Of a DNA stretch of 64,000 bases, positions 8,195-31,026 are shown one piece after another. The stretch spans positions 1,408 to 65,407 of the forward strand of contig DQIQ01000003.1 in NCBI GenBank assembly GCA_003942085.1, given 5' to 3'. The notes under the pieces were generated by a model, which made no database searches, was not told the DNA's origin, and was given only the letters and a program-made list of their open reading frames with translations. This stretch comes from Thermoplasmata archaeon. GTDB lineage: Archaea > Thermoplasmatota > E2 > DHVEG-1. Within the stretch, counting starts at the first letter, position 1; the number at the start of each line of letters is the position of its first letter. The translations under genes were made by a program, and so were the position numbers.

Positions 8195-8197
8195 CCG

Positions 8198-8947: not shown

Positions 8948-9003
8948 ACTTAAATACATCATGTAATATACGAAACCGACTCAAAACTATATCTTGATGG
9001 CCT

Positions 9004-9180: not shown

Positions 9181-9261
9181 CATGGCAGCGTGTGACTCGT
9201 TTTTCTTTAAAACCAAAATCATTTAAATCACCTACCTTATTCTGTTTTCCTGTTGATCGGG

Positions 9262-10887: not shown

Positions 10888-10892
10888 ATCGG

Positions 10893-11915
10893 TTACATCG
10901 TTTTTGGTTCAAAGATCGTTTTATGCAGCAGCAGGTTGCTGCCGAAGAACCAGAGCGGTGGGATCAACGCAACAAGCATGATGTAGCTGTTCAATGAGCT
11001 TAACATGACCGGTGTTGTCGCGTACATGAAAATCACGATGATTCCGATGGATTTCCTGATGCGTGTTCGGTCGAAGGTTTTAATGGAATACAATTTGTAA
11101 ATCGAAAAAAATGTTACAACCGCAAGAAGCACAAGCAATGATATCTGCCAGATGCTCGGATGCAGACCCAGACAAACAAACGGAATAAAAATCAGCGTCA
11201 TCCGCGCTATCTCGATCAGGTATCCAGTTGTTTTAAAAGAGAGTGGTAAAGCGATGATGCCGGCATGGATATGTGCCCCTAAACGGATTGCGATGGTATT
11301 TGCGCTCCCTTCTTTATCGTGATCGATATCTTTTATCGCCCCGTTAATCATATTCATAAAGAGGACTTGTAAACCTCCGATGAGCGCCACGATATAAGCT
11401 AAAGTCGTTGGGGTCCCGATCGTCGATGCTCCAAACAAAATGAGGAAAAAAACAGCACCAGCCACAAAAATATCCATACCCGGGTATTTCTTACTTGCAA
11501 CATCATAGACGGTCGCAAAGAAATAGGCGGTCAGAAGGATGAAGAAAAGAAAGACATAATTGAGAAGCTCTGAAAAAAATACCAGCGAAAGAAGAAACGA
11601 ACCGACCATACAAGAGATGGCAAAGAACGCAGCACGCCTCCGGGAGATACTTCCTCTTACCAATGGTCGTGCTTTGAGGTCATTGGAGAGTTTATCGACT
11701 TTGATATCGATGATATCATTCAGTATGAATCCATAGGCATGGGCAAGACTTCCGATGATAAATAAGATAAGTAATTTCCAGAGCGAAAATGTGTGAAGGT
11801 TCCACATGGACAGCGCACCCAGTACAGGAGCTATCGCGGTAAGTCCCATGTTGAAGAGGCGAGTAATCTCGATATAATCACGAAGCATTAACAAAAAAGT
11901 AAACCGGAGGCCCAT
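10893..11915 (-). CDS. UbiA-family aromatic/isoprenoid prenyltransferase (polytopic membrane protein)
   Basis: First Asp-rich motif NDIIDIKVD and second motif KDIDHDKEG; about 9 hydrophobic helices. Confidence 0.8.
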   Translation of the reverse strand: MGLRFTFLLMLRDYIEITRLFNMGLTAIAPVLGALSMWNLHTFSLWKLLILFIIGSLAHAYGFILNDIIDIKVDKLSNDLKARPLVRGSISRRRAAFFAISCMVGSFLLSLVFFSELLNYVFLFFILLTAYFFATVYDVASKKYPGMDIFVAGAVFFLILFGASTIGTPTTLAYIVALIGGLQVLFMNMINGAIKDIDHDKEGSANTIAIRLGAHIHAGIIALPLSFKTTGYLIEIARMTLIFIPFVCLGLHPSIWQISLLVLLAVVTFFSIYKLYSIKTFDRTRIRKSIGIIVIFMYATTPVMLSSLNSYIMLVALIPPLWFFGSNLLLHKTIFEPKTM

Positions 11916-12998: not shown

Positions 12999-14384
12999 CT
13001 ATTTGTTGTTTTTCAAATAATCATCAATCGCTCTGGCTGCTCTTTTTCCAGCACCCATGGCAAGAATAACGGTTGCAGCCCCCGTCGCAATATCACCGCC
13101 AGCAAAGATACCTGGTAACGATGTTCGCCCGTCATCATCAGCGATGATATTCCCATGTTTCCCAACTTTTAGGTCTTTCATGGTTTGTGGTATCAAAGGA
13201 TTTGGGCTCTGTCCAATTGCGACAAGCGCTGTATCAATAGCTAACTTTTCTTCAGAGCCGATTATGGGGACGGGTCGTCTTCTACCAGAGTCATCAGGTT
13301 CCCCTAATTGCATTTTCAGATATTCAACTGCTTTGAGGATTCCTTTCTCATCTCCGATGAATCGAATCGGGGCGGTCAGTAGTTTGAAAACTACTCCCTC
13401 TTGTTTTGCATGTTCGATTTCCTCAGCACGTGCCGGCATCTCTGCTTCTGTTCTGCGATACAGGATATATGATTTTTCTGCACCTAAACGCAGCGCAGTC
13501 CGCGCGCAGTCCATCGCAACATTGCCTGCGCCGAACGTCACAACGACTTTACCAATTTTGACTGGTGTGTCGTATTCAGGGAACCGATAAGCCTTCATCA
13601 TATTCACTCTTGTAAGGAATTCGTTTGCTGAATAGACGCCATCAAGGTTCTCGCCAGGGATGTTCAACCAATTCGGAAGACCAGCACCAGTGCCGATGAA
13701 CACCGCATCAAACTCGTCCCTTAACTCCTGGACCGTGATGGATTTTCCAACCACGACGTCATAGTTGATATCGACTCCGAGACTTTTGATATACTCAACT
13801 TCAGATTTCACGATTGCTTTCGGGAGACGAAACTCAGGGATCCCATACATCAACACCCCGCCGGGGTCATGTAACGCCTCAAAGACCGTGACGATATGCC
13901 CCATCCGTGCAAGATCACCTGCGCAGGTCAGCCCTGCTGGACCTGAACCGACCACGGCGACGCTCTTTCCAGTTGACTTTGGCTTCTGTGGAGGTTTTTT
14001 CCCTTTTTCTCGTTCGAAATCAGCAATGAATCGCTCCAATCTGCCGATACCGACTGGTTCACCGATCTTTTTAAGGGTGCATTCTCCTTCGCATTGGCTC
14101 TCATAGGGGCAGACACGCCCAGAGATAGCTGGGAGGTTGTTTTTCGCTTTGATGACCTCTGCTGCCTTCTCAAAATCACCTTGGGCAATACAACCAATAA
14201 AACCAGGGATGTCGATTTCTACAGGGCAGCCTTTCATACACGGTTTGTTTTTACACTGAAGGCAGCGCTTTGCTTCCTCAATTGCTATCTCCTTGCTATA
14301 ACCGTACGGTACTTCTTTGAAATTTTTTATCCGCTCTTGTGGAGGTTGTTCTGGCATGTCGTGTTTGGTTTTTCGAACGCTCAT
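12999..14384 (-). CDS. NfnB / SudA / GltD-like NADPH-dependent oxidoreductase large subunit (glutamate synthase small-chain family)
   Basis: N-terminal 2x[4Fe-4S]-type Cys clusters (CLQCKNKPCMKGCP, CPYESQCEGEC), FAD/NAD Rossmann motifs VAVVGSGPAGL and VVTFGAGNVAMD, and a C-terminal GDIATGAATV. Confidence 0.85.
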   Translation of the reverse strand: MSVRKTKHDMPEQPPQERIKNFKEVPYGYSKEIAIEEAKRCLQCKNKPCMKGCPVEIDIPGFIGCIAQGDFEKAAEVIKAKNNLPAISGRVCPYESQCEGECTLKKIGEPVGIGRLERFIADFEREKGKKPPQKPKSTGKSVAVVGSGPAGLTCAGDLARMGHIVTVFEALHDPGGVLMYGIPEFRLPKAIVKSEVEYIKSLGVDINYDVVVGKSITVQELRDEFDAVFIGTGAGLPNWLNIPGENLDGVYSANEFLTRVNMMKAYRFPEYDTPVKIGKVVVTFGAGNVAMDCARTALRLGAEKSYILYRRTEAEMPARAEEIEHAKQEGVVFKLLTAPIRFIGDEKGILKAVEYLKMQLGEPDDSGRRRPVPIIGSEEKLAIDTALVAIGQSPNPLIPQTMKDLKVGKHGNIIADDDGRTSLPGIFAGGDIATGAATVILAMGAGKRAARAIDDYLKNNK

Positions 14385-15202
14385 TGGTCACCTGCCAGTT
14401 TGCATGATTCTCCTTCCGCATGGACAAAACGGCGGTTCCGAAGCATTAAATTGTCATAATCCACTTTATGACCGTCAAACTCAGGACCGTCAACACACGC
14501 AAATTTCGTCTTGCCATCAATCGAGACGCGGCATCCTCCGCACATCCCGGTCCCATCAACCATAATGGGGTTCAAACTCACCAGGGTTTTAATATTGTAT
14601 TTTTTTGTAAGATTGGACACGACCTTCATCATGATGATCGGGCCGATCGCCATGACCATTTCGACCTTGTGTTTATCGATGACCTGCTGTAGTACATCAC
14701 TAACAAATCCCTTATGACCTTTTGAGCCGTCATCGGTCGCGATATAAAATTCATCGCTAAACGCGCGAATTTCTGGTTCTAAAAGCAGGAGATCTTTAGA
14801 TTTTGCACCAAGGATTGAAATCACAAAATTTCCTTCTTTTTTCAATGCCTTAACAATCGGATATAACGGAGCGATGCCAACTCCTCCACCGACACACACA
14901 ACGGTTCCGTATTTTTTTACCTCGGATGGCATCCCCAGTGGTCCTGCAAAATTTTCTAGCGAATCACCAACATGCAGTAATCCAAGTTGTTTCGTGGTTT
15001 TTCCAACCTCGAGAAAAATAATAGTTACCGTTCCTTCTTTTGGATCTGAGTCTGCAATCGTCAAAGGGATACGTTCCCCTTTTTCATCTATTCTTAAAAT
15101 GATGAATTGACCAGGTAATGCTTTCTTAGCAACCAACGGGGCTTTTATTTTTAAAAGCTTTACATTTTCGGATAATATCTTTTTATCAACAATCGGATAC
15201 AT
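14381..15202 (-). CDS. NfnA / SudB-like ferredoxin-NADP reductase-type small subunit (FAD/NAD-binding, C-terminal 2Fe-2S)
   Basis: PGQFIILRI, VCVGGGVGIAPL and the C-terminal Cys cluster MVDGTGMCGGCRV...CVDGPEF. It shows ATGA overlap with the downstream large subunit. The ATG at 15200-15202 is preferred over the TTG at 15223. Confidence 0.8.
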   Translation of the reverse strand: MYPIVDKKILSENVKLLKIKAPLVAKKALPGQFIILRIDEKGERIPLTIADSDPKEGTVTIIFLEVGKTTKQLGLLHVGDSLENFAGPLGMPSEVKKYGTVVCVGGGVGIAPLYPIVKALKKEGNFVISILGAKSKDLLLLEPEIRAFSDEFYIATDDGSKGHKGFVSDVLQQVIDKHKVEMVMAIGPIIMMKVVSNLTKKYNIKTLVSLNPIMVDGTGMCGGCRVSIDGKTKFACVDGPEFDGHKVDYDNLMLRNRRFVHAEGESCKLAGDQ

Positions 15203-15342
15203 AGAACCCCTCTGGAAATACAATCCTTTGTAGTAACCGTAATTAGGAGGAATTTTAATAGTTTATGATATCCTTATAAAGAGCCAAAATTTATTAAGAA
15301 TCAACAGATGGCACGCGTAACGATTTATAATGTGGTGGAACG

Positions 15343-16197
15343 TTGAAAGGCATCTTTGTATCTGATATTCATGGAAACATCCCGCGATTCCAACGTCTCT
15401 TTCAAATCATTAGACACGAGACACCGGAAGCTGTTTTTTTTGGAGGAGATCTTCTTCCCATTCATCCAATAAAACACAATTCCATGGAAGAATTTATTGA
15501 AACTACTATTTTTTCAGAAATAAAAGATATACTAAACGACTTTGATAATAAAATCCGATTTTTCATTATCCTTGGTAACGACGATCCGCGAATGTATGAA
15601 CAACTTTTTATTGATGCAGACAAGTCAGGTTTCTTAAATTACATTCATCAAAAAACCATTTCCTATAAAAAAATATATGTGACAGGATATTCGTTTATTC
15701 CTCCGACACCGTTTCAACTAAAGGATTGGGAGCGTTACGACGTGTCCCAGTATGTCGATGTTGGAGCAGTATCGCCAGAACTAGGGATTCGGACAATTGA
15801 CGTTCCGCTCGATGAAATAAAATATTCAACGATTGCCGAAGATGTAGAAAAAATTTCAAAACAGAGTCCTTCAGAAAAAACCATCTATCTGTTTCATTCA
15901 CCACCGTATCATTCATGTCTTGACCGAGCAGACCTCGCTGGGAAAAAAGTTGACCATGCGCCTATGGATGTCCATGTGGGAAGTATTGCAATCCAGCGTT
16001 TCATCACCACACATCAACCTTTGTTGACATTACATGGTCATGTCCATGAATCCGCACGCATCACAGGAGTATGGAAAGAAAAAATCGGGTCTACGTATTC
16101 GTTTACCGCAGCCCATGATGGACCTGAGCTTGCAATCGTACGATTTGATACCGATTATTTGGAGAATGCAATCCGGGAACTAATCTCTGTTTCTTAG
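15343..16197 (+). CDS. Metallophosphoesterase family protein
   Basis: IFVSDIHGN, FFGGDLLP, LGNDDP and HGHVHE motifs; TTG start inferred. Its 3' end overlaps the convergent giant gene by 4 nt. Confidence 0.7.
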   Translation: MKGIFVSDIHGNIPRFQRLFQIIRHETPEAVFFGGDLLPIHPIKHNSMEEFIETTIFSEIKDILNDFDNKIRFFIILGNDDPRMYEQLFIDADKSGFLNYIHQKTISYKKIYVTGYSFIPPTPFQLKDWERYDVSQYVDVGAVSPELGIRTIDVPLDEIKYSTIAEDVEKISKQSPSEKTIYLFHSPPYHSCLDRADLAGKKVDHAPMDVHVGSIAIQRFITTHQPLLTLHGHVHESARITGVWKEKIGSTYSFTAAHDGPELAIVRFDTDYLENAIRELISVS

Positions 16198-19100
16198 TTA
16201 TCTTTTTTCAGGGAGATCTTCCGTACGGTCTGATATGGGGACGTGATGTGAGAAGCCCAGGAGCTTTTCTTTTTAATATCCTCATCGGTGATAATATGGA
16301 CATCGAGGAGACCTTCGGTATCAAAACCAGTACGTTCTTTATTCTCCTTAGCGAGTTTTTTCCCCCATTCATCGAACCATACCATTAATTTGTCCTTCTG
16401 CTCATCAGTCCCTTTGAAATGCACGAGCAGATCGATATCACTCGTCGGACCGGGACTTCCGTCTTTCGTACTCCCGATAAGATACATCTCTTGAATGCCA
16501 TATAATTGAGGATCAAGAGCCTGTGCAATCTCTTCAATCTTCTGCGTCCGCCAGGTGAGATGATCAGCTGGTTTCAGATAAGCAAGTGCTTCGTTTGCCT
16601 CGCCATCCATGACGACGGAGAGGGTCCCGCCTGGGATGATATCGGAGATTTTTACGAGACGTACCACATCCTCGAAGTTCTTATACGCCGGAAGCACATT
16701 CGTCAAACTGTTTTCCGATTCAAAGAGCATTTTCTCATTGAAAAGATCTTCTCCTTGATCAGGATATAAGGGGAGATACCGGATGTTTGATTCCACCAAA
16801 TCTTGGAAGAAATGCGTTCCGAAGGAAAGCTCAGGGATATATCCACCTTTTTCTTTTGCTATTTCTAACATCATAGCAGTGTTGTTTATATCCCCATACC
16901 TTACCGGAACGCCTAATTTTATATCTCCTTTACTACCCCATCGCCCAGGACCCATCAGAATAAACTTTCTTTTCGGAAGCTTTACGTTTAATTCACTGAC
17001 GATTTTCGCAACCTTCTGCATTTGTTCTCTCTTGGTAAGGTTCGTATATTCCTCGGGGATGACGTAGACGATATATTCTATGTTTTCAATCTGAGCGGTA
17101 GTTACGTATTTTTTCGTAGAAAAGAGTTTCCGGTCATCAGGAATGTCTTTTGGTACCGGTTTTCGTTCAATGCCCAGGGATTGACTTTGCGGGCGGCACT
17201 GCAGTATAAAAAGGTTTTTCCCATCACAGGCGAATTCCACATCAACCGGGGTGCTTATTTTTTCTTCTAATAAAGCCAATATGCGTTTTATTTTTTCGAG
17301 AAAATCGCTTTTTTCGAAAAGATTGGAGAAGGTGACAACGATATCTGCATTCTCTGGGTTGAAAAGAACACTTGGGGGGCTGAGTCGCCCGCTTTCATGG
17401 ATTGAGACGATATCACTGAGTTTCGGAAATTCTTCTGCATGTTCTCTGAAGAATTTCACCGCGTCAACAGTTTCGATAATGCCGGTTTCTAAATTAATCA
17501 TATCCATGTACCGAGGTGAGTATTTGATCCTTTCTTCAACTAGGGGGTTGACATGAAGATTTGGTCTTTTCGGTGAAATCAATATCGGGTAATCATTCCC
17601 CATTCTATCGACAGCCCGTGTACCAAGACCCGGGACAATGCGAATCATCCCGTCCTCTCTACTGATGCGGGGAGACCAACGGAACTCGTTTCTACTGAAG
17701 GCAACTCCTGCATACGTTGGTAGAAAATACGGTCCGACCCTGGTTCCAACAACCTCTTGAATCAAAATCCCCATTTCCTCGTTGAAATCAAGGAGTCCTC
17801 GCTCACGTCGGTATTCAATAGGGTCAGGGCTGAATGTGGATGCGTATACCTCTGCGATAGCATCCATAAGCGCATGGAGTCGTTCCTCTTCAGTGCCTAA
17901 ATTCGGGACAAATAAGCTTTTATATTTCCCTGAAAAAGCGTACCCGAAGCTATCCTCAAGGAGACTTGAGGAACGGACAATGATGGGGCTGTCTTTGAAA
18001 TCTCGGATAATCCGACGTAATCCTTCGACGATTTCATACGGGAACGATGAATGTTTAAAAATCTGCTCTAAAAATGGTTGTTCCTGGCGGATCTCAATCG
18101 GATCCAAATATTTTACATGAGACACTTCATCTAAATCGTTATAGTGAATAAATGATAAGATGGAATCGGAGGTAAGATACCAATTTTTTGGGAATGTGAT
18201 ATCTTTTAGGACATCATCTTTTTTCATCTCTTCTTTGATGATTTTCTCCGCAAGGAGCACACCTGATGATTTTCCTCCTAATTTTCCTGTACCTTGCGCT
18301 GGACCAACAACATGTTCTAATAGGTTATCAAAGTCAGCGACATCAAAAAACATTTTTGCAACATTGACATACTCTAGACGTTCTGTGAAAAACCGTCGAA
18401 TTAATGCAGTTTTAATACTCATTTGATCTTCCGGGGAAATCGATAGTTCTGCGTCCGGTTGGTCAAAGAACCTATTTAACTCAGCAGCAATCTCAACTAA
18501 AGGAATCCCTGCTTTTTGAGATTGAAGAAGTAATGGTCGGGCTTTATCCTGTTTCATCCAATTCGCGAATAAGTTTGAGATATCTTCTGCAGGGATGCAT
18601 TCTTTTGCAATTTCAAAAACCTCTCTTTGTATTGTCACCAAATCATTGAGATTTTGTCGTTGATTTGGCATATGAATACCGCGAAAGTCAATCGCACTTG
18701 AATCACTATCAACGGAAGGTGCAATTCGATTTAATAGTGCGCTGACCTTCTCATTTTCAATTCGATACAGATAATAGGTCATCTTTCTAGTTATTCGGAG
18801 TAATGTACGAGGATCGGTTTTTACGAGTAGATCAAGGATGACTTCCCAATTATGTTTTTTCTCAGGGGTTTTTGATTTCGCAGCAGTCTCCTTTTCTTCT
18901 GCCTTCATTATTTTTTGAACGTAATCTAATCGTTTTCTTTGCTGCTCAAGTTCTTCTTTGATGCGTCGTTCTTCAATAAATTTTCCCAGAAGACTGGCAA
19001 TTGCATCGATTAACCGTCGTTCCTCTAGTAGGAACGGACCCTCTGCAGCATGAGGTTTTTCTTCAAGATAAGTAACCTCTAGTCGACCTATTTTTTTTTC

Positions 19101-19397
19101 ATCAACGATAATCTCGCTTTCCTGTGTCCATTTTGTTTTTTTGTAGTTCTCGGTCTTGAATTCTTTCCGTCCTACAAGATTAATTCGTACGCAGGTAATC
19201 TCAGGAAATTGCCAGGCGGGTGACATTAGATTGGTTATTTTCTGCAACGCTTCATCGATAGAGAGTTTACTATCATTGACAATCTTTGTTATCTGGTAAA
19301 AGCAGTTGAGCTCTTTTACCCGTTCTTTGAGCTCCCGCATCATGTTTCCGTTAGTGGATTCATTAATTTTATCGTCCATGGTAATCTCCTGTGCCAT
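16194..19397 (-). CDS. 1067-aa multidomain protein: sensor-like N-terminal module + coiled coil + PEP/pyruvate-binding ATP-grasp (PPDK_N-type) + unassigned GPGRWGS domain + C-terminal Pol-beta-type nucleotidyltransferase
   Basis: PPDK_N motifs: GKLGGKSSGVLLA, IIVRSSSLLEDS, MGILIQEVVG, GLGTRAVD, VDVEFACDGKNLFILQCRP. NTase motif: IGSTKDGSPGPTSDIDLLVHF (G-S-x9-12-D-x-D). I saw no GGxTSHAAI-type swivel histidine motif. Confidence 0.8.
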   Translation of the reverse strand: MAQEITMDDKINESTNGNMMRELKERVKELNCFYQITKIVNDSKLSIDEALQKITNLMSPAWQFPEITCVRINLVGRKEFKTENYKKTKWTQESEIIVDEKKIGRLEVTYLEEKPHAAEGPFLLEERRLIDAIASLLGKFIEERRIKEELEQQRKRLDYVQKIMKAEEKETAAKSKTPEKKHNWEVILDLLVKTDPRTLLRITRKMTYYLYRIENEKVSALLNRIAPSVDSDSSAIDFRGIHMPNQRQNLNDLVTIQREVFEIAKECIPAEDISNLFANWMKQDKARPLLLQSQKAGIPLVEIAAELNRFFDQPDAELSISPEDQMSIKTALIRRFFTERLEYVNVAKMFFDVADFDNLLEHVVGPAQGTGKLGGKSSGVLLAEKIIKEEMKKDDVLKDITFPKNWYLTSDSILSFIHYNDLDEVSHVKYLDPIEIRQEQPFLEQIFKHSSFPYEIVEGLRRIIRDFKDSPIIVRSSSLLEDSFGYAFSGKYKSLFVPNLGTEEERLHALMDAIAEVYASTFSPDPIEYRRERGLLDFNEEMGILIQEVVGTRVGPYFLPTYAGVAFSRNEFRWSPRISREDGMIRIVPGLGTRAVDRMGNDYPILISPKRPNLHVNPLVEERIKYSPRYMDMINLETGIIETVDAVKFFREHAEEFPKLSDIVSIHESGRLSPPSVLFNPENADIVVTFSNLFEKSDFLEKIKRILALLEEKISTPVDVEFACDGKNLFILQCRPQSQSLGIERKPVPKDIPDDRKLFSTKKYVTTAQIENIEYIVYVIPEEYTNLTKREQMQKVAKIVSELNVKLPKRKFILMGPGRWGSKGDIKLGVPVRYGDINNTAMMLEIAKEKGGYIPELSFGTHFFQDLVESNIRYLPLYPDQGEDLFNEKMLFESENSLTNVLPAYKNFEDVVRLVKISDIIPGGTLSVVMDGEANEALAYLKPADHLTWRTQKIEEIAQALDPQLYGIQEMYLIGSTKDGSPGPTSDIDLLVHFKGTDEQKDKLMVWFDEWGKKLAKENKERTGFDTEGLLDVHIITDEDIKKKSSWASHITSPYQTVRKISLKKDN

Positions 19398-19441
19398 TCT
19401 GATTGTCTCCCATTCCGCTCATATTATCAAATGTAGTACCA

Positions 19442-22400
19442 TCATCCATTATTTTTCTTTTTCTGTATAACTGCTTTTCCTTGTTTTCCGTCTATCTTAA
19501 CCTCAAGTCCATAAGGTGCTCTTACATGTCTCACGTCGGCCATATCTTCGACTACAGGCAGGGAATCAAGCCAATGTACATCAATATTTCCATTCCCCTC
19601 CTTTGTAATCAGATATCCGACCTGCGAGGAAATAAGATCATGGAAGAAATGTGATCCCTGCGATGGGTCAATCGCCCGTTCCTTAAAAGGTGCCTCGATA
19701 ATAACTTTCACACCGGCAATATCGCTCCAGATCACCGGGATTCCTAACCAGTGATCTGCAGAACCCCATCGTCCTGGTCCTATGAGCATATATGGTTTTT
19801 TTTCTTCCATTATTTTTGAATTCAAAGCCCGTAGCTGGCTTACCACCTGAGCTGAGTTTGACATATTAAAGGATGATTTTACGTAAACGATGTCCTGGAT
19901 TGTATCAAGAATTCCGTTTCCTAATGCGTTTTCGCTATAACAGATATCGGTTTTAGCATTGAAATCACCTATGACGATATCACTTGTTTTGCCTGGTGGA
20001 ACCATGCTACGGATCTGCAAGATAACTAATTCTGCTCTTTCGGATTCAGTTTGACCAATATTTACTGCAAATTCTATCTCAACAGGATAACCTAAGGTAA
20101 TTTCACTTATACGTAACAATAATTTCAAAGCTTTTGCCAATGGTATCGCGTCGTATTGGGTAATTGGACCAAAATCAATAACAAGCGATCCTTCATCGTA
20201 TACTCCTGGGTAGAGGCTATCGTCTTGACGAACATACGTTGATGCTATTTTGTCTAACATTCCATGTCTACGCGCATCCTCCACCTCAAGAATACTATAG
20301 GATGTTTCTTCATTTCGCTCAACGATACGATACGTAGATTTCAGGTTTAATGCATAAAATTTGCGTTGTGAATATCTCATAAAATCCTTTGGAGTTCCAT
20401 ATAAGGGGACTGCGGGTCTCTCTGGACAAAACCCAAACGTACTACCTCCATCGACAATGGCTTTGCCCAAACCAAGTGCGAGATAGACAATTCCATCTTC
20501 TTGTTTACAACCGCCTGATGGATAATAGTTATAGGATTTTGCTACTCCTGAAATCGCTGGGTAAAAAAAGGTTTCATGTTTACGTCCGACGACTTCTTGA
20601 ACAATCACCGCCATTTTTTCATCACCAATATTTTTCGGCGTTGATTTAATATATGTTCGTGCTTTTTCAAAGAATGTTGAAGCATATACGTATTTAACTG
20701 CATTGCAGACATCCTGGAACCGGAAATCAGTTTCCCAGGATTCATTTGGCAATAAAATGGAATCATAAATACCTGCAAAGGACTGTAACAACGAATCTTC
20801 GAGTACCCCTGAGGAACGTACTACTAATGGTTTTCGGGTATTGTGAATAAATGCTCGGAGATCACCCAGTACTGTCGCAGGGAGATTAGCGGACATGAAT
20901 TTTAATGCGATCCGCTCATCGGGGAGATCAAAGAGTTCTTGGTTTGGTAATGAATTTTGTGCTAAAAATGATTCAAAGATGTCGGTGGAGATTACAAGTG
21001 TGCGAGGTATTGTTATCCGAAGGGTTGGGAACATGTCATCTGAAATATATTTTGAAGCAAGTTTTGCAAGAAATGACAGCCCTCGTGCTTTTCCCCCAAG
21101 TGCCCCTTTTCCAATGCGACTAATTTCAAGAGAGGAAGCAAGATTTGCTCGTTCAAAAGGAGTCACTAATGACTGGGTTTGAGCATATTTATATTCTTCT
21201 AATAAATCGATAAGTCGCTTCCGTAACTCGGTGCTCTTTCCAATCTCTTTTTCAATTATCTGGATTTTTCCTGCAAGGTCGATTTCACCCCGAACGCGAA
21301 CCCAGGTGGAAAACAGATGCTGGTGTGTCGCATGGGTAAGGACAGCCTCATCGATTGACAGCACAGCATCCTCGAAATCCTTTATGTTTTTAATCCGGTA
21401 GAGTTCTTTTTGATTTGCATCTTTAAGGATTATTTCTCGGGGACCAAGACATTCATTGATAAAATCTTTAATAATTAACGCTAGAGTTGCGTCAATTTTT
21501 GATACAAACCGAAGATGAGGTCCCAGAGAAATATCACCACTGTATGGTTCAGATGATTGGATGAGGATTGGAATATTTGGTGTTTCTTTATGTATTATTT
21601 GGGCAAGTTTTTCGCCAGCCTTTGTAGTTTTTTTTAAACCACAGTCAAGTTGATTGTCGGTGATTACACCGATGATGATATTCTTATTCGTCTGATAGAG
21701 TTTTTCTCCAGTTTCAAAATCCTGTGCATGCAACAGGAATGGCCTATTATTGAGACGAAGGATTCGTTGCTCTTCGCTTAAGGAATCGGAGAGGATACTC
21801 TCAAGAAAGTCATGGATTTCATCATGGAGTAAAAGAAGATATGTGGAATAGTATTGAATCGAGTCTTCGATTAATACCATACATCGACCATGAGCGGCAA
21901 GTGCTGGGTCTTTTTGTATATTGACAGAATCTTCTATGAGCTGGATAATGGTAAGAATTATTTTTCCATCACCGTTCCATGTCAATATTTTACTAAAAAC
22001 ATTCTCTGTGTTTTTCTCTTCGATTTTTATGAGTTCTGCTATATTGTTCCCAAGGAGCACAATTGGAATGTCGGTTATTGATTTCATTTGTTTCGCTAAG
22101 GAGAAACTATCAATATCATCGAGTTTATCAAAAACGATAACTAGATCAAACTGTTGATTCGTTAGAAAGGAGATACATTCCTCTTTGCTTTCAACATGTG
22201 TTATTTGAGGGGGCGCTTCACGACCGAATGGCACGTAGTGTTCTTGTAATAGAGAACTCAATCTGCCTTCCTCTTCCAACTGGAAAAAATGATAAGAAGA
22301 AGAAAGAAGGAGAATTTGTTTTATATGATATGGCTCAACGTGCTGCTCTTTTTCAAGTTCCGTTTGTTTGACTATGGACGGAGTAATGCCGGTGATTTCT

Positions 22401-22450
22401 TCGATACAACGAATGATTTTTTTTTCTCTGTCGTTGAACCGGATGTTCAT
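19442..22450 (-). CDS. 1002-aa multidomain protein: two receiver-like domains + PEP/pyruvate-binding ATP-grasp (PPDK_N-type) + unassigned GPGRWGS domain
   Basis: Receiver-like segments: ILLLSSSYHFFQLEEEGRL...DLVIVFDKLDD...PIVLLG, and MVLIEDSIQYYS...IIGVITDNQL...PILIQSS. PPDK_N motifs: GKGALGGKARGLSFLA, LVVRSSGVLEDS, MAVIVQEVVG, LGLGKAIVDG, VEIEFAV...LVILQIRS. The C-terminal LIGPGRWGS...QGSHFFHDL is shared with the neighbouring paralogue. Confidence 0.8.
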   Translation of the reverse strand: MNIRFNDREKKIIRCIEEITGITPSIVKQTELEKEQHVEPYHIKQILLLSSSYHFFQLEEEGRLSSLLQEHYVPFGREAPPQITHVESKEECISFLTNQQFDLVIVFDKLDDIDSFSLAKQMKSITDIPIVLLGNNIAELIKIEEKNTENVFSKILTWNGDGKIILTIIQLIEDSVNIQKDPALAAHGRCMVLIEDSIQYYSTYLLLLHDEIHDFLESILSDSLSEEQRILRLNNRPFLLHAQDFETGEKLYQTNKNIIIGVITDNQLDCGLKKTTKAGEKLAQIIHKETPNIPILIQSSEPYSGDISLGPHLRFVSKIDATLALIIKDFINECLGPREIILKDANQKELYRIKNIKDFEDAVLSIDEAVLTHATHQHLFSTWVRVRGEIDLAGKIQIIEKEIGKSTELRKRLIDLLEEYKYAQTQSLVTPFERANLASSLEISRIGKGALGGKARGLSFLAKLASKYISDDMFPTLRITIPRTLVISTDIFESFLAQNSLPNQELFDLPDERIALKFMSANLPATVLGDLRAFIHNTRKPLVVRSSGVLEDSLLQSFAGIYDSILLPNESWETDFRFQDVCNAVKYVYASTFFEKARTYIKSTPKNIGDEKMAVIVQEVVGRKHETFFYPAISGVAKSYNYYPSGGCKQEDGIVYLALGLGKAIVDGGSTFGFCPERPAVPLYGTPKDFMRYSQRKFYALNLKSTYRIVERNEETSYSILEVEDARRHGMLDKIASTYVRQDDSLYPGVYDEGSLVIDFGPITQYDAIPLAKALKLLLRISEITLGYPVEIEFAVNIGQTESERAELVILQIRSMVPPGKTSDIVIGDFNAKTDICYSENALGNGILDTIQDIVYVKSSFNMSNSAQVVSQLRALNSKIMEEKKPYMLIGPGRWGSADHWLGIPVIWSDIAGVKVIIEAPFKERAIDPSQGSHFFHDLISSQVGYLITKEGNGNIDVHWLDSLPVVEDMADVRHVRAPYGLEVKIDGKQGKAVIQKKKNNG

Positions 22451-22459
22451 ATGATCGAA

Positions 22460-23800
22460 TTACACCCAACCACGCATTTTACATGCTTCAGCTACTCGAG
22501 AAATCGCAATCATATATGCAGCATCGCTGACACGTATTTTCTTCCGTTTTGATAGCTCCCATACTTTATAAAACGCGTCAGTCATTTTATTATCAAGCTT
22601 ACCAAGGACTTCCTCTTTTGTCCAATAGTAGTTCTGGTTACTTTGAACTTGCTCGAAATAACTACAGACAACACCGCCAGCGTTTGCAAGGAAATCAGGG
22701 ATTACGACAACACCTTTTTTCTCAAGGACATTTTCTGCCTCCGGTGTGACAGGCCCATTCGCACCACAGATAATGATTTTCACCCGTGGTTTTATTTGCT
22801 GAACATTCTCTTCAGTAATCGAATGTTCAAGAGCAGCAGGTATGAGAATATCTACATCCTGTTTCAACCAATCATCACCCGGTCGAACCTCATACCCAAG
22901 CTTCTCCGCCTGTTTTTTATCAATAGTCCCAAAACGATCTGTGATCTTTATTAGTTCATCAAGTTTAATCCCGGTTTTATTATAATAACTATACGTGCAA
23001 TTTTCTGCTTGATCCCAGCAAGACACAGAGACGACAATGCCTCCATATTGGATAAATAACTCAGCAGAATAGCGGGCGACATTTCCAAACCCTTGGATAG
23101 ATGCGGTAGTTTTTGTAACGTCCATCTTCATTTCTTTTAATAGTTCACGAAGAATATAAATAAGTCCATAACCTGTGGCCTCTGTTCTTCCACGAGATCC
23201 ACCGAGTTCCACTGGTTTTCCAGTGATTAGGCCAGGGTATTGCCCACCCATGATTGTTTGGTACTCATCCATTATCCAGAGCATGTGCTGACCACTCGTC
23301 ATCACATCAGGAGCTGGGACATCGCGGACCGGTCCAATATCTCGGGCAATTTGCCGCACCCATCCTCTACAGAGTTTCTCCTGTTCACGTTCTGAGAGAT
23401 TATGAGGATCGCAAATAATCCCACCTTTTCCTCCACCTAATGGAATATCAGCAACAGAACATTTCCAGGTCATCCACATAGATAATGCACGAACTGTATC
23501 CTCTGTTTCTTGTGGGTGGAAGCGGATTCCTCCTTTGCAGGGTCCTCGTGCATCGTTGTGTTGAACACGAAATCCTCGAAATACCTTCATGGCACCATCG
23601 TCCATTCGAATCGGGATGGAAAAAATGTACTCTCGGAGGGGATTTCTTAACAGATCTCGTGTTGGTTCATCAAGATTAAGTTGATCCGCAATCCTATCAA
23701 ATTGTTGTTGAGCCATTTTAAATGGGTTAAAGCCTTCTTTTTCTTTTTTATAAACTCCACTTGTTCCTTTTTCCTGTTTTAATTCCTGTTTAACTTGCAT
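22460..23800 (-). CDS. gdh: Glutamate dehydrogenase (Glu/Leu/Phe/Val dehydrogenase family; Pyrococcus/Thermococcus-like type)
   Basis: FRGFRVQHNDARGPCKGGIRFHP, PLGGGKGGI and GFGNVA Rossmann motifs. It ends 9 nt upstream of the next gene's start. Confidence 0.9.
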   Translation of the reverse strand: MQVKQELKQEKGTSGVYKKEKEGFNPFKMAQQQFDRIADQLNLDEPTRDLLRNPLREYIFSIPIRMDDGAMKVFRGFRVQHNDARGPCKGGIRFHPQETEDTVRALSMWMTWKCSVADIPLGGGKGGIICDPHNLSEREQEKLCRGWVRQIARDIGPVRDVPAPDVMTSGQHMLWIMDEYQTIMGGQYPGLITGKPVELGGSRGRTEATGYGLIYILRELLKEMKMDVTKTTASIQGFGNVARYSAELFIQYGGIVVSVSCWDQAENCTYSYYNKTGIKLDELIKITDRFGTIDKKQAEKLGYEVRPGDDWLKQDVDILIPAALEHSITEENVQQIKPRVKIIICGANGPVTPEAENVLEKKGVVVIPDFLANAGGVVCSYFEQVQSNQNYYWTKEEVLGKLDNKMTDAFYKVWELSKRKKIRVSDAAYMIAISRVAEACKMRGWV

Positions 23801-24078
23801 AATACATTCGCCTCTTCTTCGCCCACCATGTATTGTAATCCTATATAAATAATTTAGGAATAAGAGATAAAAAGGGAACAGATAACGTTAAACTTTGTTT
23901 GTTTTCTATTTCGTAGGATGTTTTTATATAATCAAAATGAAATACCTAATATGATATAAAGGGATGCAAAGGAAATTAACATATCAATGGAATCGCATTA
24001 AAAATATAGTAATAATAATTTATAGTCCATTTGATATAAAAATCAGTTATTGATTTTTATTGAAAGAGGAACCTTGAC

Positions 24079-24522
24079 ATGAGCGATGAAATCGATGAAA
24101 AGAAAAAAAAAGAGGAAATCAAAGATGACTCCTCGAAATCACAATCTATTCCGTTAGATATACCTTCTGCGCCACAAGGAGAAATGAATGAAAAAATATT
24201 TTATCGCGAAGTCATCAAATCGTGTTGGACTCATGAACCATGGTTATATTTCAAAGTAATCATAAAAAGTAATGAAGAGATGGGTGAATATATAGCACTC
24301 CATGGTCTTGTACCCCAGAATGAACTGCCTGTTCATCTGCGTTATAAAATACCGGAAAACGAGATATGGATACGGGAAAACGTATATGAGGATGTCGGAC
24401 GACGACGATCGATTCTAGCTCACGAATATGCGGAGCTTGATTTAATGATAAGCCAGGCAATGAGTTACAAAGAAGCGCATGAACATGCAGAGTTTATTGA
24501 ACATCTCTATTATCATGATTAG
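24079..24522 (+). CDS. Hypothetical protein (147 aa) with acidic/basic N-terminus and a duplicated AHE[YH]AE motif
   Basis: ATG-initiated ORF in a gap. It contains ILAHEYAELD and EAHEHAEFIE 18 aa apart. No family recognised. Confidence 0.5.
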   Translation: MSDEIDEKKKKEEIKDDSSKSQSIPLDIPSAPQGEMNEKIFYREVIKSCWTHEPWLYFKVIIKSNEEMGEYIALHGLVPQNELPVHLRYKIPENEIWIRENVYEDVGRRRSILAHEYAELDLMISQAMSYKEAHEHAEFIEHLYYHD

Positions 24523-24607: not shown

Positions 24608-25132
24608 TTATTTTTTTCTTGGTTTTTTCTTTTTGTAAGATTTCTTTTTTTGAATAAGCCACATCCCTTCTGGAGTAAACCCACAGGATTTATAGAAATG
24701 AAACGCTGGGTTTTTAAATGCGACCCCAACCCCAACAAATTCGACGCCTTCTGCGTACAACTGATCCAGAATTGCTTCAAGTAAATCATTTCCAATGCCA
24801 CTGGTCCGATAATCAGGGTGCACGCAAACCTCATCGATGAATCCAATCCGCTCTATCCTATAGACACGTGATTCATCACGTTCACCTACATGTCCTGTGA
24901 TTATCCCAATAACCTTCTTTTTATCTTCTGCAACAAAAAAAAACTGATCCGGATCAGTTATTAACTCTCGTTGGCGATTGATGATATATTCTTGACATTT
25001 CTCCTTAGGTTTCAGGCTATCAAGGATACCACTATAATGAGTATGTTCCAAGGATGATATCCAGTACAATTCGAAGAACGCTTCTAGATCTTCTTCGGTT
25101 CCCTTTCGTATCACTATCGATTTTTTCTTCAT
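24608..25132 (-). CDS. GNAT-family N-acetyltransferase
   Basis: Motif A region VCVHPDYRTSGIGNDLLEAI, size 174 aa, Lys-rich C-terminal tail. Confidence 0.8.
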   Translation of the reverse strand: MKKKSIVIRKGTEEDLEAFFELYWISSLEHTHYSGILDSLKPKEKCQEYIINRQRELITDPDQFFFVAEDKKKVIGIITGHVGERDESRVYRIERIGFIDEVCVHPDYRTSGIGNDLLEAILDQLYAEGVEFVGVGVAFKNPAFHFYKSCGFTPEGMWLIQKKKSYKKKKPRKK

Positions 25133-25243: not shown

Positions 25244-26614
<1,371 letters not shown>

Positions 26615-27920: not shown

Positions 27921-30656
27921 TTACGTTTTAATGTAAAACAGAAGTATCGTTCCATTTTGTGATGTGCTTGTGGTGCTATAGGGGTGTGATGCCGTAACCG
28001 TTATGATGGTCTTTCCAAATCCAAGGATGAGATCAGAGTTAATGGTCCGTTGGCCACCAGCGGGGATGCTTAAGAGAGTCCCACCTGTTTTTTGCCCGAT
28101 GAATGCACCACCGGTTAGGGTGATGTTCCATTGAACATGCATAATATCGATAGCACCTGTGTTTTTGATCACGGTTTTGATCTTGAACAGCCCGCCCGAG
28201 AGAAGACCGATCTCTAGTTTAGGTGCTATGATGGTGATGGCAAAAGGATTTGACCAATCGCTTTCAATCCCAAGGGTATTTTTGGCTTTTGCAGTAATTG
28301 AAAAGTTCCCTTTATCAGACCAGACATGCGAAATAGTTGCAATAGATCCTGAGGCACAGGGGCCAAACCATTCTTCATGGTTGCCATCGCCCCACTCTAC
28401 CCAGTAGAAGACGTTCGAATTCCCTGGGTCTGTGGTGACGAAAGAAAAATCCATCTGCCTTCCGATATCTCCTTCTGCTGATCCATTTATCTGCGGTGGA
28501 AATGGTGCTGAAAGAACAGGGCTGACCACTAAGGCATAGTCCGCGTCAAGCTCTGGTGTTTCCACATGGGAATCCTGGATGATTTCATCAGCAGACACCT
28601 CGACAGTCCAGGTTCCCGCCTCAGGGTTTTGAATGAAGGCGCATTCGACCGTGTCCTTTGTGTCTGGGCTGCCATCCGGTTGGGACCATACACCATTCCG
28701 AAGACCGTTGTTTCCCCAGTAAATAACCTTTGACGGGGAAATGACCTTCAAGGATAAATCGTTAATCCGATGTTGTGATTGAACCGCAGGATTTCCAGCC
28801 GGATCAGCATACGTCATGGTGACCTTTAAATACGGTGAATCCGCCTCGACAGATACTATATGTGTTGATACCTCAAAGGGTTGAAGCACGTCTGATTCGT
28901 CGATAATGTAGAAATTATCTCGTAAATCGTACAGGTTTTTCACCGACGGCATTCCCCATCCCAGATGCATACGTGTTTTATCCTCGGTTGTTCCATTGAA
29001 TGGGTATTGATCGGCAGTGTTGATCATCATAGCTTTTGCCGTCGTCATATGAGGACGGTTTTCAAAGACGGTGCCCTGTGGGTCGATTTTGTTTCCGAAT
29101 ATCCCATCAGACCACATCTGATAAAATAGACCGAAATGACCGGCAATGATCGGTGTTGCTCCGCTCGTACCACCAAAATTGTCGGTGTAAGCTGTTGGAC
29201 TTCCTGATGTTGTGGTGAATATCCAATCATAGAATGAACAGAGGTCTGGTTTTATCCTTCCATCGGTAGCAGGTCCGATACTGCCACCGTAGTTCCATTG
29301 GTCATCGGCTTTTGTCAGGGTATCATAATGGTAGATGCCACCGCCAGAGACGATGTTCTTTGCCCAAGCCTGCGGTCGTGACATTTGATCACCTGCATTG
29401 CTTTGAGATTGACAATGAAGTACGTCAAAATCAAAGAGCGCGGTATCAGTATCCGCGGATATCGTGGTGTACTCGGTTGTTCGATCGTTTCCAACACTAG
29501 ATGTCTCAAACACCCCGTAGTAAGGACCTTGTAATAACTCTCCAGTATGGTTATACCGATTCATCCCCTCTAACCCAATATAATTTAAGTCACCGACAAT
29601 TCCTTGACCTGCAGGGAGCAACCCTCTACCTTTTGGGTTACCGGTCCCATCTCCGAAGACAATCCCTGAGGTTGAGGCACCATGAGAGTCACTCCCGACA
29701 TTCCCATGTAGGATCAACGGACGGGATTGAAAATCAATATGAGCAATGTTAAACCCAATGTCGAAGACTTCCCCTCGGACACCGCTCCCATTGTAGCCTG
29801 CGACTGATTCAATGTAATTTGCCCCACCAATTTCACGTGCAATATCCATATCTACTTCGTAGGGGCTCCATCGGTCTACAAATAATATTTCATCCCAGCG
29901 AACGACCGAGAAAAGCTGATTTGGTGATAAGGTGGCTTCAATGAGGAATTTTCCTGCATCTGCCTTATTTACTATCCCACCAATTTCTTTGATACGTTCT
30001 GCGACGATGGTCTTTTGTTCAGCTGAAAGCACCTGGATGTTATACCGTTGAAGAGGGTACCTCTGGTCGGCGTTTTCCAAATTATCAATCATGAATTCTT
30101 CAAGCCTATAGGCGGGATGATAGGACCCAACCCAACGGACATAGGGGAAGGATTCAACCTGTGCTCTTGCATATTCTCCCATCTCGACAAGATAAGCATA
30201 TTGAGCGATATAATGCCGTACCACACCGCCACATGCTGTTATCGCATCGTTGAACTCTTTGAGAGGCTGGGTGAAAAACTGAACGATAAATAAATGGGTG
30301 TCGCTATTTGCCGTTAAAAGAGGCTCAATCGATGGTTCCCCTTTAGCAGGGTCGAAATGAGCATATCTCAATCCAATTTCGTAACAAGGCTGAACCGTTC
30401 TTACAAAAGTTTTTCCTCCATCTAAACTTATCGAATAAAACGGTACAATCTCGTTTGTATTAAGTGTGCCATCCCAGAGTTTCAACAAGATTGATGAATC
30501 AGGTATACTGATAAATCGTTCATTGGTGTTTTCAGTGTTTTTTTGAAAAAACGCCAAGGTGTCATTGAGGATATCTCCGTTGACACTGACTGCGGTTGGA
30601 ACACATAAGATACAAATAATTAGGCCTATGACTAATTTATTTATTTTTTTATCCAT
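27921..30656 (-). CDS. Secreted subtilisin-like serine peptidase (S8) with C-terminal PKD-like and beta-sandwich domains
   Basis: Signal-like N-terminus MDKKINKLVIGLIICILCVPTAVS. Triad contexts are VFDIGF (Asp), DSHGASTSG (His) and GGTSGATPIIAGH (Ser). The PKD-like segment is FYWVEWGDGNHEEW...ISHVWSDKGNFSITAKAKN. Confidence 0.85.
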   Translation of the reverse strand: MDKKINKLVIGLIICILCVPTAVSVNGDILNDTLAFFQKNTENTNERFISIPDSSILLKLWDGTLNTNEIVPFYSISLDGGKTFVRTVQPCYEIGLRYAHFDPAKGEPSIEPLLTANSDTHLFIVQFFTQPLKEFNDAITACGGVVRHYIAQYAYLVEMGEYARAQVESFPYVRWVGSYHPAYRLEEFMIDNLENADQRYPLQRYNIQVLSAEQKTIVAERIKEIGGIVNKADAGKFLIEATLSPNQLFSVVRWDEILFVDRWSPYEVDMDIAREIGGANYIESVAGYNGSGVRGEVFDIGFNIAHIDFQSRPLILHGNVGSDSHGASTSGIVFGDGTGNPKGRGLLPAGQGIVGDLNYIGLEGMNRYNHTGELLQGPYYGVFETSSVGNDRTTEYTTISADTDTALFDFDVLHCQSQSNAGDQMSRPQAWAKNIVSGGGIYHYDTLTKADDQWNYGGSIGPATDGRIKPDLCSFYDWIFTTTSGSPTAYTDNFGGTSGATPIIAGHFGLFYQMWSDGIFGNKIDPQGTVFENRPHMTTAKAMMINTADQYPFNGTTEDKTRMHLGWGMPSVKNLYDLRDNFYIIDESDVLQPFEVSTHIVSVEADSPYLKVTMTYADPAGNPAVQSQHRINDLSLKVISPSKVIYWGNNGLRNGVWSQPDGSPDTKDTVECAFIQNPEAGTWTVEVSADEIIQDSHVETPELDADYALVVSPVLSAPFPPQINGSAEGDIGRQMDFSFVTTDPGNSNVFYWVEWGDGNHEEWFGPCASGSIATISHVWSDKGNFSITAKAKNTLGIESDWSNPFAITIIAPKLEIGLLSGGLFKIKTVIKNTGAIDIMHVQWNITLTGGAFIGQKTGGTLLSIPAGGQRTINSDLILGFGKTIITVTASHPYSTTSTSQNGTILLFYIKT

Positions 30657-30764: not shown

Positions 30765-31026
30765 TTGAAGTTTTTTCCCATTTATGACTCAATCATTTTA
30801 GCAGGACCTGTGAGGGCAGAATTGTTCAGATTGTTGTGTAGTTTTTCATTGATTTTTAAAAAAAATCTCAGAGATTTGTGACTGAATGACATAAGGGGTG
30901 TGCTCAAAGAAATACACCGTTTTAAATTTTTATGCGTGTGAAATCAACAATCTATTTATATACAATCATCATACAGACTGTGCGACAAAAATAATTTATT
31001 TTTGTCAAAACGGAAACATTAGAAGG

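Follow-up and report, generated by a model that had tools for sequence, protein, structure and literature searches.

The central-metabolic dikinases phosphoenolpyruvate (PEP) synthase (PpsA) and pyruvate, phosphate dikinase (PPDK) are defined by three domains: an N-terminal ATP-grasp domain (PPDK_N), a swivel domain with a histidine (PEP-utilizers, PF00391) and a TIM barrel (PEP-utilizers_C, PF02896). The first of these has also been recruited for phosphorylation outside central metabolism, as in rifampin phosphotransferase and in PigC and RedH, which keep a C-terminal swivel histidine domain together with a substrate-binding domain, and which have no receiver, GAF or nucleotidyltransferase domain and no linkage to gdh. 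Yet another combination, in which a receiver domain (REC) is fused to PPDK, was mentioned in our literature searches only in two censuses: it was listed as a 'Bacteroides-like' architecture among response regulators (PMC5847659), and PPDK effectors were reported to be enriched among aspartate-less receivers (PMC4395418). Here, a cluster of genes is described from a 64,000-nucleotide stretch of contig DQIQ01000003.1 of an uncultured Thermoplasmata archaeon (hereafter the window), in which gdh, the gene of glutamate dehydrogenase (GDH), is followed by two long genes, ORF-B and ORF-A. By their sequences, the products of the two belong to a branch of the PPDK_N ATP-grasp superfamily that is new and that is marked by a novel partner domain, a signalling layout and a consistent tie to gdh.

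ORF-B has the REC-PPDK architecture of the censuses, in which a PPDK_N output follows two receivers, the first aspartate-less and the second canonical. However, the two censuses (PMC5847659, PMC4395418) give the domain combination only, with no function, no C-terminal domain and no link to GDH, and make no connection to proteins of the ORF-A type or to those that consist of the catalytic core alone. An earlier, preliminary description of this DNA, made from its letters alone, had named no characterised member of the architecture. The fusion itself is not wholly unnoticed; neither a function nor a GDH link for the REC-PPDK fusion was found in the literature.

The gene order on the minus strand is gdh, ORF-B, ORF-A, and the last of these is met by a convergent metallophosphoesterase gene (Table 1). 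The coordinates given in the preliminary description agree with the list of open reading frames, as do the gaps of 9 nt between the gdh stop and ORF-B (22451-22459) and of 44 nt between the ORF-B stop and ORF-A (19398-19441), and the 4-nt overlap of ORF-A with the metallophosphoesterase gene (16194-16197). ORF-A and ORF-B are considered real genes because each has hundreds of full-length homologues; ORF-B is 100% identical to the NCBI entry 'hypothetical protein DSN98_01290'. Both proteins resemble PpsA and PPDK in their homologous PPDK_N domain and differ from them in lacking the swivel domain and the TIM barrel, in place of which there are an unrelated C-terminal domain of 180 aa and N-terminal sensors.

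Table 1. Features of the gdh cluster and its surroundings in the window, with residue numbers of the encoded proteins where they apply
Feature	Residues	Positions	Strand	Remarks
gdh, glutamate dehydrogenase		22460-23800	(-)	446 aa (called length); leads the cluster
ORF-B		19442-22450	(-)	1002 aa; REC-like 1, REC 2, linker, PPDK_N ATP-grasp, C-domain
ORF-B receiver-like domain 1	~45-170	21941-22318	(-)	A2 profile against PDB response regulators
ORF-B receiver domain 2	~188-325	21476-21889	(-)	canonical residue set; D265 codon 21656-21658
ORF-B PPDK_N ATP-grasp	450-815	20006-21103	(-)	Pfam PF01326, E 4.5e-34
ORF-B C-domain	816-1002	19445-20005	(-)	GPGRWGS 891-897, GSHFF 932-936; alignment A1
ORF-A		16194-19397	(-)	1067 aa; GAF-like, helical region, PPDK_N ATP-grasp, C-domain, nucleotidyltransferase
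ORF-A GAF-like sensor domain	~18-150	18948-19346	(-)	followed by a long helix
ORF-A all-helical region	~180-365	18303-18860	(-)	AlphaFold2 secondary structure; many invariant columns in alignment A4
ORF-A PPDK_N ATP-grasp	372-745	17163-18284	(-)	Pfam PF01326, E 5.4e-53
ORF-A C-domain	746-893	16719-17162	(-)	GPGRWGS 816-822, GTHFF 860-864; alignment A1
ORF-A Pol-beta-type nucleotidyltransferase	~944-1067	16197-16568	(-)	G-S-x10-D-x-D intact
Calcineurin-type metallophosphoesterase		15343-16197	(+)	Pfam Metallophos, E 7.5e-12; convergent with ORF-A
TTTATATA, archaeal TATA-box-like element		23842-23849	(-)	42-49 nt 5' of the gdh ATG; read from the sequence
Second glutamate dehydrogenase		25244-26581	(-)	445 aa; Pfam; same arrangement in L001, L002, L004, L005, L009
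NfnAB/GltD-like oxidoreductase pair		12999-15223	(-)	461 aa and 280 aa; Pfam families of the L006 orthologues; also in L001-L007
glnA, glutamine synthetase		30898-32385	(+)	Pfam Gln-synt_C, E 2.7e-125; upstream of the cluster also in L001, L002, L004, L005
S8-like protein		27921-30656		911 aa
M14 carboxypeptidase		48222-49301		
FTCD genes (FTCD_C; FTCD_N + FTCD) and amidohydrolase		52546-55365		hut-type

The ATP-grasp domain of both proteins keeps the motifs VRSS..ED, Q-x-V-x-G and E-x-E...Q-x-R of PpsA and PPDK, and the motifs quoted in the preliminary description were all found where it had placed them. Among 81 sequences with the layout of ORF-B (B type), which come from numerous bacterial phyla as well as from Archaea, there is no variation at K454, R545, S546, E793, Q812 and R814 (ORF-B numbering), and 80 have E791; we take these to correspond to the nucleotide- and metal-binding residues of PPDK. 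The 12 residues from E721 to Q733 in ORF-A are presumably the same Glu-to-Gln spacing as in PPDK. Judging from these conserved residues, the core is apparently catalytically competent. The solved structures nearest to the ATP-grasp profile (alignment A3) are those of Listeria rifampin phosphotransferase and of PEP synthases (E 6e-10 to 7e-6), the rifampin phosphotransferase entries 5hv6 and 5fbs matching at E ~1e-9, and the NCBIfam models of PigC and RedH match the ATP-grasp domain at E 1e-13.

The other two domains of the dikinases are absent. No Pfam match to PF00391 was obtained for ORF-A or ORF-B, even at E 0.1, and none to the PF02896 TIM barrel. This is not an artefact of sensitivity, as the canonical PPDK encoded in locus L069, taken as a control, matches all three dikinase domains (PF00391 with E 3e-24, PF02896 with E 8e-75). 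The canonical swivel motif, G[GS]x[TS][SC]H[AGS][AS][IVL], is missing from all six frames of the window, and the NCBIfam PEP-synthase models give ORF-A and ORF-B 47-55 bits against cut-offs of 598-883, with bacterial members scoring alike. A separate swivel-histidine subunit encoded nearby, as in phenylphosphate synthase, was also considered and rejected, there being neither a PF00391-type protein nor the motif in the window. The lack of a swivel histidine and of a TIM barrel, which the preliminary description had reported, is thereby confirmed. Its expectation that only PF01326-type matches would be found held for the PEP-utiliser domains and failed for ORF-A, which also matches NTP_transf_2. 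As two of the three defining domains fail, ORF-A and ORF-B should not be filed as PpsA or PPDK; by domain content they are not ordinary members of either, and homologue names such as 'pyruvate, water dikinase' are mis-annotations.

The two proteins share a second conserved domain, an alpha/beta unit of ~180 aa that follows the ATP-grasp domain and is called here the C-domain. A BLASTP alignment of ORF-A with ORF-B (A369-875 with B447-947, 28% identity) continues for ~130 residues beyond the end of PPDK_N, and this extension is homologous between the two families also by reciprocal phmmer (E ~1e-12). The motifs GPGRWG[ST] and G[ST]HFF are invariant in the C-domain across the family, and in the 20 sequences of alignment A1 the invariant positions comprise GPGRWG, an Asp, LGxP, a Glu and S-x-G-x-H-F-F-x-D. 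The histidine of the second motif, H934 of ORF-B (codon 19649-19651), is present in all 81 B-type sequences, in which GPGRWGS is also invariant; its counterpart in ORF-A is H862 (codon 16812-16814). In an AlphaFold2 model of the C-domain (predicted local distance difference test score, pLDDT, 85.7; predicted template modelling score, pTM, 0.84) this histidine immediately follows Gly-Ser/Thr and marks the N-terminal end of a helix, a setting that in our view resembles that of the catalytic histidine of the dikinases.

No relative of the C-domain was recognised. A Foldseek search of the PDB with the model gave nothing at E <= 1e-3 (best template modelling score ~0.3), the C-domain profile had no match among PDB sequences, 20 members searched against Pfam at E <= 10 hit no family, and NCBIfam likewise holds no model. 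Compared by hhalign with the swivel domain of a real PPDK, the C-domain reached a probability of 0.1%. The C-domain is therefore a replacement of the swivel domain and not a diverged copy of it, as there is no likeness by sequence, profile or fold. The idea that GPGRWGSxDxxLGIPV is a degenerate form of the swivel motif GGxTSHAAIxARxLGIP was rejected, as neither the fold nor the profile comparison supports it. The preliminary description had treated both proteins as PPDK_N only and had overlooked this domain with its invariant histidine, as well as the nucleotidyltransferase of ORF-A.

Each of the two cores is preceded by a different input domain, as had been proposed. In ORF-B these are two receiver-like domains, in ORF-A a GAF-like domain. 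A profile of the N-terminal 445 residues of ORF-B (A2) matches response regulators of the PDB at positions 50-170 (E 6e-5 to 1e-3) and, more weakly, receiver domains at positions 232-341 (3jte, RssB). The acceptor position of the first domain, D108, is not conserved, being Pro or Leu in most of the 81 sequences, so that this domain is classed as an aspartate-less or pseudo-receiver. The acceptor set of the second domain is E195 (81 of the 81 sequences), D196 (72), D265 (80), S299 (81) and K318 (81). Pfam does not detect receiver domain 2 in ORF-B; Response_reg matches in this protein stay below the gathering score (E 0.003-0.026) and are recorded for some homologues. The linker that leads to the ATP-grasp domain (residues ~330-445, positions 21116-21475) contains a FSxWLxARxExxLA-like motif, with W383 kept in 79 and A393 in 72 of the 81 sequences, and gives repeated faint matches to the C-terminal end of DUF5752 (E ~0.03).

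The AlphaFold2 model of the ORF-A N-terminus is of moderate confidence (pLDDT 68). Nearly all of its top Foldseek matches are to GAF domains (4g3k with TMt 0.61, 8jrc, 3p01, 3cit), with probability 1.0 and E values of at least 8.6e-3, and Pfam GAF matches, all sub-threshold, are confined to bacterial orthologues of ORF-A (E 0.005-0.05); the domain is for these reasons named GAF-like. Modelling and fold searches, which had been recommended for the unassigned regions, thus gave a confident model and no PDB fold match in the one case and a moderate, GAF-like one in the other. The helical region at residues ~180-365 has no Pfam match. The C-terminal nucleotidyltransferase domain matches Pfam NTP_transf_2 over residues 955-1016 (E 2e-8 to 4.5e-8; 33.8-34.9 bits against a cut-off of 21) and Polbeta (E 1e-5); its motif, GSTKDGSPGPTSDIDLL, occupies residues 975-991, and a downstream Asp is found in LLDVHI at 1030-1035.

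A search with the C-domain profile, with clustering at 50% identity and E <= 1e-3, returned at least 2,115 clusters, 603 of them with E <= 1e-30, and a scan of one genome per species gave at least 600 sites, the best 80 species-representative loci of which were used for the analysis of neighbourhoods. These 80 are mostly bacterial. They include Bacteroidota, among them the cultured Gillisia limnaea DSM 15749 and Lutibacter oceani as well as metagenome-assembled genomes of Prevotella and Bacteroides, and also Desulfobacterales, Planctomycetota, Acidobacteriota, Chrysiogenia, Elusimicrobia, Fibrobacteraceae, Krumholzibacteriia and others. The family is mainly bacterial and not an archaeal peculiarity. 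The ATP-grasp domain and the C-domain always occur together as a constant unit of ~560 aa, which is found in core-only proteins (~580 aa), in REC-core proteins (~710-780 aa), in REC-REC-core proteins of the B type (~1000 aa, the commonest form), in GAF-like-REC-core proteins (1145-1557 aa, some with GAF-like repeats plus REC) and in GAF-like-core-nucleotidyltransferase proteins, to which ORF-A belongs (A type). Signalling enzymes are built in this way, with interchangeable sensors in front of a catalytic unit that stays constant. In three proteins of 1523-1654 aa (P0241, P0242, P0243) a core-only protein is naturally fused to an A-type one, with or without the nucleotidyltransferase, which suggests that the two kinds of protein work as a complex. 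The statement that no member has been characterised still holds: NCBIfam has no model for archaeal or bacterial members, Pfam has no family model and none was found in the literature, and the labels assigned by public pipelines (JGI, NCBI) are 'hypothetical', 'PEP/pyruvate-binding domain protein', 'pyruvate, water dikinase' and 'pyruvate, phosphate dikinase'.

In all seven of the Thermoplasmata places examined, gdh, the B-type gene and the A-type gene stand in this order and are followed by the convergent metallophosphoesterase gene, and the gdh-B-A arrangement is kept in loci whose ORF-B orthologues are 68%, 53%, 51% and 50% identical to that of the window. In many of these genomes the cluster lies in a core-metabolic synteny with glnA, gdh, nfnAB and the CTP synthase gene, with the NfnAB/GltD-like pair downstream and the second gdh and glnA upstream. 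Two loci, L002 (17081-21451) and L004 (2960-7438), contain in addition a third REC-REC-core paralogue, of 1008 or 1018 aa, adjoining an extra gdh; as the extra paralogue is again directly next to an extra gdh, the gdh and core pair was duplicated as a unit.

The linkage extends far beyond the Thermoplasmata. Of the best 80 loci, 34 have gdh no more than 400 bp from a family gene, and 38 have it somewhere in the fetched flanks. The two genes share a strand in 29 of the 34 close loci; gdh is upstream in 16 of these and downstream in 13, with gaps that shrink to 0, 4, 6, 12 or 15 nt or give way to an overlap. The gdh-linked loci span at least 15 phylum-level lineages. When the genes within three positions of the family gene were clustered without supervision, gdh was recovered in 32 loci, and no other family in more than 8, these being lineage-specific. 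Since the adjacency is kept while the gene order changes across domains of life, it is not inherited synteny. A census of gene neighbourhoods had been proposed as a check on the linkage to gdh, and the outcome, down to 50% identity in the Thermoplasmata and in both gene orders across phyla, confirms the original observation in a form stronger than stated; the interpretation attached to it is partly supported.

Other neighbours recur more narrowly. A-type genes are present in 10 of the 80 loci, every time with a second core protein, and the metallophosphoesterase gene adjoins the A-type gene in 9 of these 10 genome loci and in L001-L007; most bacterial B-type genes have no A-type partner. Nine Bacteroidales loci (L021, L029, L032, L035, L038, L040, L059, L061, L075) carry a tandem of a GAF-like-REC-core gene (~1150-1217 aa) and a REC-REC-core gene (~990 aa), with the alpha and beta genes of a 2-oxoacid:ferredoxin oxidoreductase (POR_N/POR, TPP_enzyme_C) upstream and an OsmC-like gene downstream, gdh being often absent from the flanks. 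In locus L082 of Syntrophobacteraceae (499-8543) the gene of a HAMP-PAS histidine kinase comes first and is followed in turn by that of a sigma54 (NtrC-type) response regulator, gdh and the B-type gene, and in L028 (3202-9938) the gene of a hybrid PAS histidine kinase is divergent from the B-type gene, which is followed by gdh; both kinases are possible phosphodonors for the B-type receiver. Locus L069 of an uncultured bacterium (4029-11351) is the only one seen in which gdh and a B-type gene are followed directly by a canonical three-domain PPDK gene.

That gdh, ORF-B, ORF-A and the metallophosphoesterase gene belong to one conserved functional module, spread across lineages, appears to be the best explanation of the sequence data. 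Starting from the anatomy, the conservation, the architecture of the family and the gdh linkage, all of which are observed, a mechanism can be outlined whose chemistry, acceptor histidine, target and regulatory direction are hypothesised; the terms 'phosphotransfer' and 'control of glutamate catabolism' of the preliminary description are likewise inferred. To the proposal of an ATP-dependent modifying module that is controlled by signals and acts on GDH or on the 2-oxoglutarate node we give slightly less than an even chance. ORF-B would act in it as a response regulator, in which phosphorylation of Asp265 switches the output of the ATP-grasp domain and the C-domain, and ORF-A would sense a small ligand through its GAF-like domain, 2-oxoglutarate or glutamine being a guess. 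The cores would use ATP and transfer a phosphoryl group, probably via the invariant histidine at the helix start in the C-domain, to a target at the GDH/2-oxoglutarate node, for which GDH itself would be the most likely candidate. The nucleotidyltransferase of ORF-A could add a second modification, on the partner core or on GDH, and the metallophosphoesterase could reverse a modification, the net effect being a fast post-translational control of GDH by nitrogen, carbon or energy status. Taken singly, a covalent modification of GDH by the module seems rather unlikely to us. Speculative, too, is the most specific version of the scheme, in which the core would be an unrecognised ATP-driven, His-mediated protein phosphotransferase that took over from the dikinase swivel domain and that forms, with the A-type nucleotidyltransferase and the phosphoesterase, a writer/eraser system switching GDH on and off covalently; this we regard as unlikely.

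GDH stands at the junction of carbon and nitrogen metabolism, and to our knowledge little is known of its post-translational control in prokaryotes outside a few model systems. If the proposal is right, Thermoplasmata and many phyla of bacteria, gut Bacteroidota among them, would have a new layer of such control at this branch point. The reversible in-vivo inactivation of GDH that has reportedly been described in Bacteroides fragilis could find its explanation there and is mentioned as a lead only. Irrespective of the mechanism, a large uncharacterised enzyme family, found also in gut Prevotella and Bacteroides, is defined here and its common mis-annotation as a dikinase corrected, response regulators and GAF sensors gain a new kind of output domain, and gdh, as the one outstanding genomic partner, leads to the concrete hypothesis that a regulatory or catalytic activity of a new kind operates at the 2-oxoglutarate/glutamate node.

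Two known systems of nitrogen control offer analogies. In enzyme I-Ntr (PtsP), which reports nitrogen and carbon status, a GAF sensor is joined to a phosphotransfer enzyme that belongs to the PEP-utilising superfamily. Its likeness to ORF-A is a functional analogy only: PtsP has swivel-His and PEP-binding domains and no ATP-grasp domain, whereas in ORF-A and ORF-B it is the reverse, and the catalytic parts are without homology. The sole tool-based link to PtsP is that one fold match of the ORF-A N-terminus, 3ci6, is a GAF domain from a PEP-protein phosphotransferase. In GlnD and GlnE, a nucleotidyltransferase of the Pol-beta fold is paired with a removing activity and controls an enzyme of nitrogen assimilation, an arrangement analogous to ORF-A with the phosphoesterase. 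No specific sequence relationship exists here beyond the generic NTP_transf_2 fold and, unlike in GlnD/GlnE, the removing enzyme would be a calcineurin-type phosphoesterase and not an HD or nucleotidyltransferase domain.

Several observations weigh against a module that modifies GDH. No gdh was present within the fetched flanks of 42 of the 80 loci, some of which are on short contigs. GDH cannot be the sole target, since the Bacteroidales loci have the 2-oxoacid:ferredoxin oxidoreductase instead of gdh, although this neighbour, the pattern of a single order, still points to 2-oxoacid metabolism. No GDH-core fusion occurs among the 149 best family representatives, in which the only fusions are those of the core with an A-type protein, and the gene neighbourhood as such is explained equally well by a shared pathway and by regulation. 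As the C-domain resembles no domain that could be recognised, a phospho-acceptor role for it is a guess, and all PPDK_N enzymes known to us need a swivel His domain, which the family of ORF-A and ORF-B does not have. Finally, no histidine kinase that could serve as the phosphodonor of ORF-B was found among the scanned ORFs of the window.

The alternative that survives best, which we nevertheless consider improbable, is a sensor-regulated small-molecule kinase, in which the core works like rifampin phosphotransferase, PigC/RedH or phenylphosphate synthase and phosphorylates or activates a metabolite belonging to the 2-oxoglutarate/glutamate node. The C-domain would then be the substrate-binding domain, and GDH would supply or consume the substrate. 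It agrees with this that the nearest ATP-grasp relatives (5hv6, 5fbs, the PEP synthases, PigC, RedH) are small-molecule dikinases, that the neighbours handle 2-oxoglutarate, with gdh widespread and the 2-oxoacid:ferredoxin oxidoreductase in Bacteroidales, and that the canonical PPDK gene of L069 lies directly downstream of a B-type gene. All those relatives, however, use a swivel His domain, and there is none here. Varied sensors on a constant core are typical of signalling outputs and not of pathway enzymes, a nucleotidyltransferase with a paired phosphoesterase is hard to place in a linear pathway, and no known pathway needs such a step.

Less probable again is a non-canonical phosphorelay, in which the ATP-grasp domain phosphorylates the histidine of the C-domain and the phosphoryl group then passes to the receiver Asp, either within ORF-B or from ORF-A to ORF-B. 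The ATP-grasp domain and the C-domain would stand in for a histidine kinase, and phosphorylated ORF-B would regulate GDH by binding. The acceptors that such a relay needs, the C-domain His (81/81) and the receiver Asp (80/81), are conserved in the same proteins; ORF-A and ORF-B adjoin in all Thermoplasmata loci, A-type proteins always occur with a partner core protein and fusions exist, and the group has very few classical histidine kinases (PMC5847659), with none among the scanned ORFs of the window. Yet many members, namely the core-only proteins of ~580 aa and those of the A type, are without a receiver, most bacterial B-type genes are without an A-type partner, several B-type genes have ordinary histidine kinases next door, and the core would be left with no output of its own.

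An anti-phage defence or toxin-antitoxin-like module, formed by the nucleotidyltransferase and the phosphoesterase with gdh as an incidental neighbour, is highly improbable. Weak matches to the PADLOC models PDC-S09 (nucleotidyltransferase, E 5e-7) and PDC-S10 (phosphoesterase, E 6e-5) and a weak match to the NCBIfam MntA model (E 0.007) would speak for it, but the PADLOC matches cover the generic folds of the two enzymes only, with none for ORF-B or gdh, and many genomes have the cluster embedded in a conserved synteny of core metabolism and not in a variable island, with its gdh linkage maintained across many phyla. The weakest alternative, that of ordinary central-metabolic PEP synthase or PPDK paralogues, for which the presence of PPDK_N and the dikinase names of homologues in JGI and NCBI could be cited, has a practically negligible probability, being already refuted by the domain content with its positive control, the low NCBIfam scores, the lack of the swivel motif in the window and a C-domain unrelated to the swivel domain.

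As regards expression, co-transcription of gdh, ORF-B and ORF-A is plausible in view of the 9-nt and 44-nt gaps, the similar or tighter spacing in many genomes and the element TTTATATA upstream, which is a candidate promoter for the three genes. A scan for sigma70 promoters and terminators across the cluster gave results at or below the shuffle expectation; it is not applicable to an archaeon. The gdh product matches Pfam ELFV_dehydrog_N and ELFV_dehydrog, as well as NCBIfam GdhA_Arch with 479 bits. As called, it carries an N-terminal extension of ~25 residues relative to the 428-aa orthologues of related loci. Because of this difference, and because the NCBIfam alignment begins at residue 25, the true start may lie downstream; Met29 is a candidate, and its use would make the 5' leader longer.

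The wider neighbourhood is as the preliminary description had it, with the second gdh, the NfnAB/GltD-like pair, glnA, the S8-like and M14 peptidases and the FTCD and amidohydrolase genes. Between the two gdh genes lies the gene of a GNAT acetyltransferase (24608-25132), conceivably a protein-modifying enzyme, which occupies the same place in L001; beside it, on the opposite strand, there is a 147-aa ORF without a family (24079-24522). A second, weaker calcineurin-type metallophosphoesterase (249 aa, 8198-8947) is encoded after a 524-aa ORF without a family (6620-8194). It is also worth mentioning that the genes of the DNA primase small subunit and of Cdc6/Orc1 adjoin each other at 49387-51844 and that Cdc6 is encoded near the gdh cluster in L004 and L005 as well, so that the cluster may be situated near a replication origin.

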